Positions 3,874 through 4,743 of a DNA stretch of 32,000 nucleotides are shown here, piece by piece. The stretch covers positions 1 through 32,000 of the forward strand of contig CP024013.1 of NCBI GenBank assembly GCA_002688505.1. The letters run 5' to 3'. The notes below the pieces were generated by a model. The model was not told where the DNA came from. It did no database searches and worked only from the letters and a program-made list of their open reading frames with translations. The translations under genes and the position numbers were made by a program. Origin of the DNA: Candidatus Saccharimonadota bacterium. GTDB lineage: Bacteria > Pseudomonadota > Gammaproteobacteria > Enterobacterales > Enterobacteriaceae. How positions within the stretch are numbered: position 1 is the first letter of the stretch; each line of letters opens with the position of its first letter.

Positions 3874-4611
3874 ATGAATAGAAAAATAGTTTTAGATATA
3901 GAAACTACAGGATTTAATAAAATTTATAAATATTATTTAAATCATAAAATTATAGAAATAGGAGCAATAGAAATAAAAAAAAGAAAAATAACAAATAACA
4001 TATTTCATACATACTTAAATCCAAATAGAAATATAGATAATGAAGCTTATAAAATACATAAAATTAAATATTCATTTTTAAAAAAAAAACCTAAATTTAT
4101 AAATATAGCAAATAAATTTATAAATTTTATAAAAAATTCTGATTTAATAATTCATAACTCAAAATTTGATATAGAATTTATAGAATATGAATTAAAATTA
4201 ATTAATATTAAAATAAAAATAAAAGATATATGTAATATAATTGATACTCTATCTATATCTAGAAAAATGTTTCCAGGAAAAAAAAATGATTTAAATTCAT
4301 TATGTAAAAAATATAAAATAAATATTAATGATAGAAAAAAACATGGAGCTTTAATAGATGCAAAATTACTAGCTAATGTATATTTAAACATAACTAGAAA
4401 ACAAACTAAAATAAATAATATATATAATAAAATAATAAAAAAAAAAAAAAATATTAAAATAACAAATAAAATTTCTAAATATAAAATAAATAATAAAAAA
4501 AATAAAAATAATATAAAAAAAAAAAAAAAAAAAAAAAAAAAAAAAAAAAAAAAAAAAAAAAAAAAAAAAAAAAAAAAAAAAAAAAAAAAAAAAAAAAAAA
4601 TATTAAAATAA
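3874..4611 (+). CDS. dnaQ: DNA polymerase III epsilon subunit (3'-5' proofreading exonuclease); 3' end as encoded is probably not the authentic one
   Basis: Exo motifs are present: IVLDIETTGF (ExoI), IIHNSKFDIEF (ExoII), HGALIDAKLLANVYL (ExoIII). As written, the frame runs through the A86 tract as poly-Lys and stops at TAA 4609-4611. A conserved-looking epsilon C-terminal tail is encoded at 4647-4718 in a different frame (see findings). Confidence 0.85.
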   Translation: MNRKIVLDIETTGFNKIYKYYLNHKIIEIGAIEIKKRKITNNIFHTYLNPNRNIDNEAYKIHKIKYSFLKKKPKFINIANKFINFIKNSDLIIHNSKFDIEFIEYELKLINIKIKIKDICNIIDTLSISRKMFPGKKNDLNSLCKKYKININDRKKHGALIDAKLLANVYLNITRKQTKINNIYNKIIKKKKNIKITNKISKYKINNKKNKNNIKKKKKKKKKKKKKKKKKKKKKKKKKKKKILK

Positions 4612-4646
4612 CAAATAAAATTTCTAAATATAAAATAAATAATAAA
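4452..4646 (+). repeat. 46-bp perfect direct repeat (4452-4497 and 4601-4646) bracketing an 18-nt spacer and the poly(A) tract
   Basis: Both copies read tattaaaataacaaataaaatttctaaatataaaataaataataaa. Each is preceded by an A-run: A15 at 4437-4451 and A86 at 4515-4600. Confidence 0.9.
4515..4600 (+). repeat. 86-nt uninterrupted poly(A) homopolymer inside dnaQ
   Basis: Counted directly: A from 4515 (after t4514) to 4600 (before t4601). Confidence 0.9.
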
Positions 4647-4743
4647 GAAATTAAAAATCATATAAAATATTTAAAATATATAAAAAAAAAATATAAAAAA
4701 TGTATATGAAAAATATAAAAATTAAATTAAATAAGGTAAATTA

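Follow-up and report, generated by a model that had tools for sequence, protein, structure and literature searches.

The out-of-frame repeat and 86-nt poly(A) tract in dnaQ of Candidatus Stammera capleta: the case for a probable assembly artefact

The dnaQ gene of Candidatus Stammera capleta, as deposited, is interrupted in the linker behind its exonuclease domain by a 149-nt block that comprises a degenerate spacer, a run of 86 adenines and the second copy of a 46-nt unit. The gene segment equivalent to the alpha-binding end of the epsilon subunit lies out of frame as written; it comes into frame when the repeat is collapsed, or when the tract has 84, 87 or 90 A. On the sequence comparisons presented here, the balance tips modestly towards the block being an assembly artefact of the record and not a feature of the organism, and a false tandem duplication at a contig join is the better fit. 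The real gene is probably an ordinary, intact dnaQ and not a switch that sets the mutation rate. If the block is an artefact, the Stammera capleta reference contains a local dnaQ misassembly together with base errors at its start, an intact fidelity gene is made to look broken, and comparisons of gene content and of pseudogenes would be misled.

The window—the whole 32,000-nt stretch of DNA that was analysed—belongs to Candidatus Stammera capleta, a pectin-degrading symbiont of tortoise beetles, with a genome of 271,175 bp in which TGA encodes tryptophan. Its G+C content is 15%. TGA is read as Trp within it, for example in IIGWIKTQRH of asnS, and over the whole window asnS, rnhA, gapA, secA, alaS and other genes are split with translation table 11 and intact with table 4. 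The genes follow one another in the order telK-like gene, gapA, small heat-shock gene, rnhA (on the minus strand), dnaQ and asnS. Around the anomaly, a search of positions 3300-5300 against Rfam found no RNA family, and there is no complete table-11 ORF in 4600-5030.

The features of dnaQ and its neighbours are collected in the table below. The two copies of the 46-nt unit (TATTAAAATAACAAATAAAATTTCTAAATATAAAATAAATAATAAA) are identical, and the perfect repeat extends to 61 nt once the A15 run that precedes the unit is counted. Beyond the unit the repeat stays in register: the spacer, AAAAATAAAAATAATAT, agrees with the sequence downstream of copy 2, GAAATTAAAAATCATAT, at 14 of 17 positions, a level reached by just 0.5-1% of the 17-mers of the window. 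Tandem Repeats Finder describes the whole as 1.8 copies of a 149-nt period with 88% matches and no indels (score 446); the period is not a multiple of three. The three positions at which the spacer differs all read A in copy 1, adjoin the tract and follow 61 nt of perfect repeat; the downstream form is ancestral, as judged from the Stammera orthologues. No other homopolymer in the window exceeds 15 nt, and 41 related AT-rich loci, 277 kb in all, reach a maximum of 21 nt, about a quarter of the tract, so that A86 lies far outside the range expected by chance or seen in the family. If it is real, it is to our knowledge by far the longest coding homopolymer in a bacterial gene. The metagenome contigs scanned for the 46-nt unit contained no match to it.

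Features of dnaQ and its surroundings in the window
Feature	Coordinates	Strand	Basis
rnhA, divergent neighbour of dnaQ	3350..3859	-	Context
dnaQ DEDDh exonuclease domain and start of linker	3874..4436	+	Pfam RNase_T, NCBIfam equivalogs, invariant catalytic residues
A15 tract, in frame, encodes linker KKKK	4437..4451	+	Exact count; aligns with QQQQ of the E. coli Q-linker
46-nt unit, copy 1; written frame reads (N)IKITNKISKYKINNK	4452..4497	+	Exact count, translation
17-nt spacer, degenerate copy of 4647-4663 in which A replaces G, T and C at three positions	4498..4514	+	
A86 tract	4515..4600	+	Exact count; without counterpart in the orthologues listed
46-nt unit, copy 2; out of written frame, reads ILK-stop	4601..4646	+	Exact count, translation
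TAA stop of written frame	4609..4611	+	Translation
Epsilon C-terminal segment EIKNHIKYLKYIKKKYKKCIWKI and TAA, one base over from written frame; TGA 4707-4709 read as Trp	4647..4718	+	
One 149-nt repeat period (equivalently 4451-4599); deletion gives in-frame 231-aa DnaQ	4498..4646	+	
asnS, downstream neighbour of dnaQ	4744..6102	+	Context

The written frame runs from the ATG at 3874 to ILK-TAA within copy 2. The frame one base over reads NIKITNKISKYKINNKEIKNHIKYLKYIKKKYKKCIW(TGA)KI-TAA, and the downstream peptide in that frame, NIKITNKISKYKINNKEIKNHIKYLKYIKKKYKKCIWKI, ends at the TAA at 4716-4718. A tract of 84, 87 or 90 A would restore the frame. The initial annotation, made from the letters of the sequence, had described this succession of A15, unit, A86 and unit with its exact 46-bp duplication, and exact counts bear the layout out, except that the spacer it gave as 18 nt has 17. 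Its frame arithmetic is likewise correct by translation. It had also named the gene as dnaQ and the out-of-frame tail as the C-terminus of epsilon, and both identifications hold up in the profile and alignment searches that follow.

Two NCBIfam equivalog models, NF004316 and TIGR01406, match the dnaQ product and place it in the proteobacterial family of DnaQ equivalogs. The Pfam RNase_T domain spans residues 5-170 (E 1.2e-33), and the DEDDh residues D8 and E10 (Exo I), D99 (Exo II) and H157 and D162 (Exo III) are invariant in an alignment with 19 orthologues. Three versions of the protein were scored against the two equivalog models. The protein encoded after collapse of the repeat reaches 247.6 bits (cut-off 196) and 242.0 bits (cut-off 222.7) and covers model positions 1-233 of 234 and 1-230 of 231, respectively. 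The version with an A87 tract reaches 240.7 and 232.2 bits. The protein as written also passes the cut-offs, at 235.0 and 226.8 bits, with a match that ends at model position 225 or 222. In a phmmer alignment, residues 2-230 of the collapsed protein run end to end along residues 6-242 of the 243 of E. coli epsilon, with EIKNHIKYLKYIKKKYKKCIWK opposite EIAAHEARLDLVQKKGGSCLWR.

The 39-residue tail of the downstream frame was compared with an HMM of the C-terminal 45 residues of named epsilon proteins from outside Stammera (Buchnera, Baumannia, Blochmannia and others). It scores 37.2 bits (E 2.8e-10), against 11.1 bits for the best of 2000 composition-matched shuffles and 10.2 bits for the best other peptide from a six-frame translation of the window. 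The tail is also near-identical to the Stammera orthologues and, by this similarity, clearly corresponds to the C-terminal part of epsilon that contacts alpha. Binding to alpha is the role of this segment in E. coli, and the Q-linker before it (residues 190-212) is flexible and tolerates insertion (PMC4478557). The window gene resembles that of E. coli DNA polymerase III epsilon (DnaQ; PDB 5FKU chain D) in having a DEDDh exonuclease domain, a flexible linker—the QQQQ of E. coli aligning with the A15-encoded lysines—and an alpha-binding C-terminal segment. It differs in that its linker is rich in Lys, Asn and Ile, whereas that of E. coli is Gln-rich, and in that, as written, the linker is interrupted by the out-of-frame block.

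Deletion of one 149-nt period yields an in-frame DnaQ of 231 aa that is collinear with the Stammera orthologues and with E. coli epsilon. That a single deletion of the repeat period produces this protein, with the best equivalog scores of the versions compared, argues for an artefact. The comparison with relatives points the same way. Among the matches listed there are 36 Stammera orthologues of 223-245 aa, each with a single linker copy and with linker A-runs of 8-14; none of the 36 contains the insertion, the tract or a frameshift at the linker. The excess of A86 over every run in the 277 kb of related loci, which it exceeds about fourfold, is a further argument for the artefact, as is the spacer, which repeats the next 17 nt of the gene with its three changes to A placed beside the tract.

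The protein record is consistent with these comparisons. The collapsed, written and A87 versions of DnaQ are all absent from a collection of 15 billion proteins, and the written 245-aa product has no exact match on look-up. The same genome is represented in that collection by RnhA, AsnS, GapA and the small heat-shock protein. The absence of any DnaQ from the 271,175-bp genome while its neighbours are present argues for the artefact, and suggests that the depositors, too, were left without an intact gene.

An independent assembly of sequencing run SRR6147586 (Logan), in which the adk and rnhA products are identical to those of the window, provides a second view of the sequence around the site; among the assemblies found for this strain, none but the record covers the insertion itself. 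Logan contig SRR6147586_12 corresponds to window positions 4999-22327 with zero mismatches. Contig SRR6147586_81 corresponds to positions 34-4466 with no gaps and three mismatches, at 63, 82 and 89, where the record has A and the Logan contig has G, T and C; nowhere else in the 4.4 kb and 17.3 kb compared is there a mismatch. Position 63 falls in the start codon of the first gene of the window, a protelomerase gene, which is ATG in the Logan contig (MNKNIIILI...) and in the orthologue from CP144843 (MNKNIIKLI...) and ATA in the record. The CP144843 orthologue also keeps the Leu that is affected at position 82. To judge from these alignments, the three differences probably reflect base errors where the record begins. 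Since the Logan contig and CP144843 both keep the ATG, the record appears to carry errors towards A in its opening stretch, of the kind seen in the spacer, and this shared signature argues for the artefact. In real genomes, substitutions toward the repeat motif do occur beside unstable microsatellites, which counts against the artefact.

Logan contig SRR6147586_81 terminates exactly at 4466, inside the anomaly, and this coincidence of the site with a contig end also argues for the artefact. It can, however, be read the other way. A de Bruijn simulation at k=31 gives 4466 as the first unitig boundary predicted by the repeat in the record, and predicts no boundary for the collapsed sequence; the contig end is therefore exactly what a real repeat would produce. 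It is neutral only in view of a second break in the same assembly: contig SRR6147586_12 starts exactly at a plain A14 run in asnS (4999-5012), where the record has no repeat. The break there suggests that reads of SRR6147586 are heterogeneous in length at long A-runs, and such length stutter can yield a break of the type seen at 4466 as well. The 4466 end thus fits a real repeat, junk sequence supported by reads, or a habitual break site of the assembler. For the same reason it was rejected as proof of the repeat.

The artefact may have arisen as follows. Two contigs would have come together in the dnaQ linker, at its A15 run, with an overlap of approximately 80 nt made up of the A15, the unit and the initial 17-21 nt of the segment for the C-terminus. 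The left contig would have ended in bases miscalled as A. The overlap would have gone unrecognised, and the join would have been bridged with A. The filler could conceivably derive from undetermined bases that were converted to A, or from low-complexity read tails. The actual gene would then be a normal 231-aa dnaQ whose flexible linker contains a run of lysines encoded by A15. As in E. coli, the C-terminal segment would hold the exonuclease to polymerase alpha. Sequence that is falsely duplicated in tandem where contigs or scaffolds are joined is a known type of assembly artefact. The locus resembles it in that the sequence of a contig end occurs twice around a filler, that collapse makes the gene collinear with its relatives and that an independent contig ends at the site; it differs from the usual case in that the filler is A and not N.

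The foremost alternative, which is distinctly less probable though a genuine possibility, is that the insertion is real and recent. Slippage in the linker would have duplicated approximately 78-82 nt, and the A-run at the junction would then have expanded, with in-frame output being rescued. The tract would be too long for a reliable count and would probably differ in length within the polyploid symbiont population. DNA alleles with 84, 87 or 90 A, slippage of RNA polymerase or ribosomes sliding on the poly(A) would supply full-length epsilon, with a Lys-rich linker approximately 50 aa longer; approximately one product in three would be in frame, at a lowered output. Several observations agree with such an event. 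The tail is intact and near-identical to its orthologues even though it is out of frame, which would follow from continued use or from a very recent event, and the break at 4466 matches the repeat at k=31. A-run length and indels vary in the dnaQ linker of Stammera, and linker length with them; the linker is therefore a natural hotspot, at which a real slippage duplication is possible, and this counts against the artefact. Insertions are tolerated by the E. coli Q-linker (PMC4478557), slippage rescue is documented with approximately 30% full-length transcripts and in genes that include dnaX and dnaG (PMC3017870), and E. coli ribosomes slide over iterated AAA codons (PMC4363877). Against a real insertion, it is found in one of 37 genomes, namely in this record (the others being among the matches listed), its tract is four times as long as any run in the related loci, and the to-A signature recurs in a demonstrable error region of the same record. 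Moreover, long AAA runs strongly lower protein output (PMC4363877, PMC4552401), and a genome-wide study of Buchnera found zero transcription errors that restored the frame (PMC5574713).

The initial annotation had offered two readings of the tract, a mis-called homopolymer length or slippage of the kind described in Buchnera and Blochmannia. The precedent is real: poly(A)-tract frameshifts rescued by transcriptional slippage, including those in dnaX and dnaG, are documented in both symbionts (Williams and Wernegreen 2010, PMC3017870), and slippage-rescued frameshifts of this kind are also attributed to Tamas et al. 2008 as cited in PMC5574713. As in those cases, dnaQ here is a replication gene of an AT-rich insect symbiont with a single indel in a homopolymer, and is otherwise intact in the new frame. 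The known tracts include that of visC in B. vafer, with 11 A, and conservation between strains or species is seen for some of the frameshifts, whereas the tract of the window, read from assembled sequence, has 86 A, is coupled to a tandem duplication and occurs in a single record. No Stammera orthologue among those listed has the frameshift, so this is not a conserved frameshift of the kind found in Blochmannia. The pair of readings also proved too narrow, since the whole 149-nt block is confined to the record and its removal restores a normal gene; an artefact that includes the duplication is favoured.

Poly(A) tracks, generally far shorter than 86 nt, are also known as translation attenuators. 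Such tracks, at which ribosomes slide, likewise consist of iterated AAA Lys codons within an ORF, but are conserved regulatory features (PMC4363877, PMC4552401), while the tract of the window occurs in one record. It is improbable that the linker contains a real, hypervariable poly(A) of approximately 86 nt through which the exonuclease would be tethered part of the time, according to genome copy or transcript, giving heterogeneous fidelity in the polyploid population of this extracellular symbiont. A real tract would represent, in extreme form, the poly(A) frameshift and slippage phenomenon already known, and would do so in a gene on which the mutation rate depends.

Still harder to credit is a frameshift that is both real and fixed. 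It would leave a 245-aa epsilon without its alpha-binding segment, with proofreading uncoupled in a mutator lineage, or else would mark dnaQ as an early pseudogene. The record as written reads in this way, alpha binding by E. coli epsilon resides in the C-terminal segment (PMC4478557), and the protein collection holds no DnaQ for this genome. However, the downstream frame is without decay and every catalytic residue of the exonuclease is intact; a tail so untouched argues against an old frameshift that lacks rescue. A run of 86 A could not keep to one frame in either DNA or RNA, and dnaQ is intact in all other Stammera among the matches listed.

The initial annotation had further proposed that the tract could tune the mutation rate. 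A selected contingency switch of this kind, toggling the epsilon tether, is very unlikely: its sole support is that a hypermutable tract lies in a gene for fidelity, while an 86-nt tract would randomise the frame instead of switching it, the indicators of an artefact apply to it equally, and no relative examined conserves the tract or the frameshift, which tells against a device under selection. Two further readings, a functional RNA element and a programmed frameshift, were likewise rejected, as nothing is conserved in the relatives.

The 3' end of dnaQ varies elsewhere in Stammera. In L010 (CP043980) the linker contains an A14 run and a run of A16 lies directly past the CIW motif, giving the tail CIWIKKKKK-stop; long A-runs thus recur at this end of the gene. 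In the closest orthologue listed, L001/L002 (CP043978 and Logan SRR10017631), dnaQ ends ...KKYKKFI-TAA, with TGT changed to TTT and the Trp codon TGA changed to TAA. The alpha-binding segment there lacks its conserved C-I-W end, and two independent assemblies concur. In a further Stammera record, CP144833.1 (L054; 297,036 bp), dnaQ lies among its chromosomal neighbours under the title 'plasmid pStChz2', probably through a slip in labelling.

The first gene of the window (58-1581, plus strand), whose start codon is affected by the G/A difference at position 63, encodes a protelomerase of the TelK/ResT type, with Pfam matches to ResT-TelK_cat (84 bits), TelK_muzzle (52.9 bits) and TelK_stirrup (33.7 bits), all above cut-off. 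A literature search found no paper that combines Stammera with protelomerase, nor, among the top-ranked papers, one that combines it with telomeres or a linear chromosome. Several independent assemblies end 30-60 nt upstream of the protelomerase gene. Just upstream of the gene in CP144843 and CP144782, two ends that form terminal inverted repeats or palindromes are joined by NNNNN; they share the inverted motif TGTAACATAT.ATATAA.TATATA (L087 480-670; L088 1470-1572), and the ends in CP144843 are perfect palindromes of 58 and 82 nt. Together, the protelomerase and the NNNNN-joined palindromic ends point to what looks like a linear chromosome with hairpin telomeres in an insect symbiont of 0.25-0.3 Mb.
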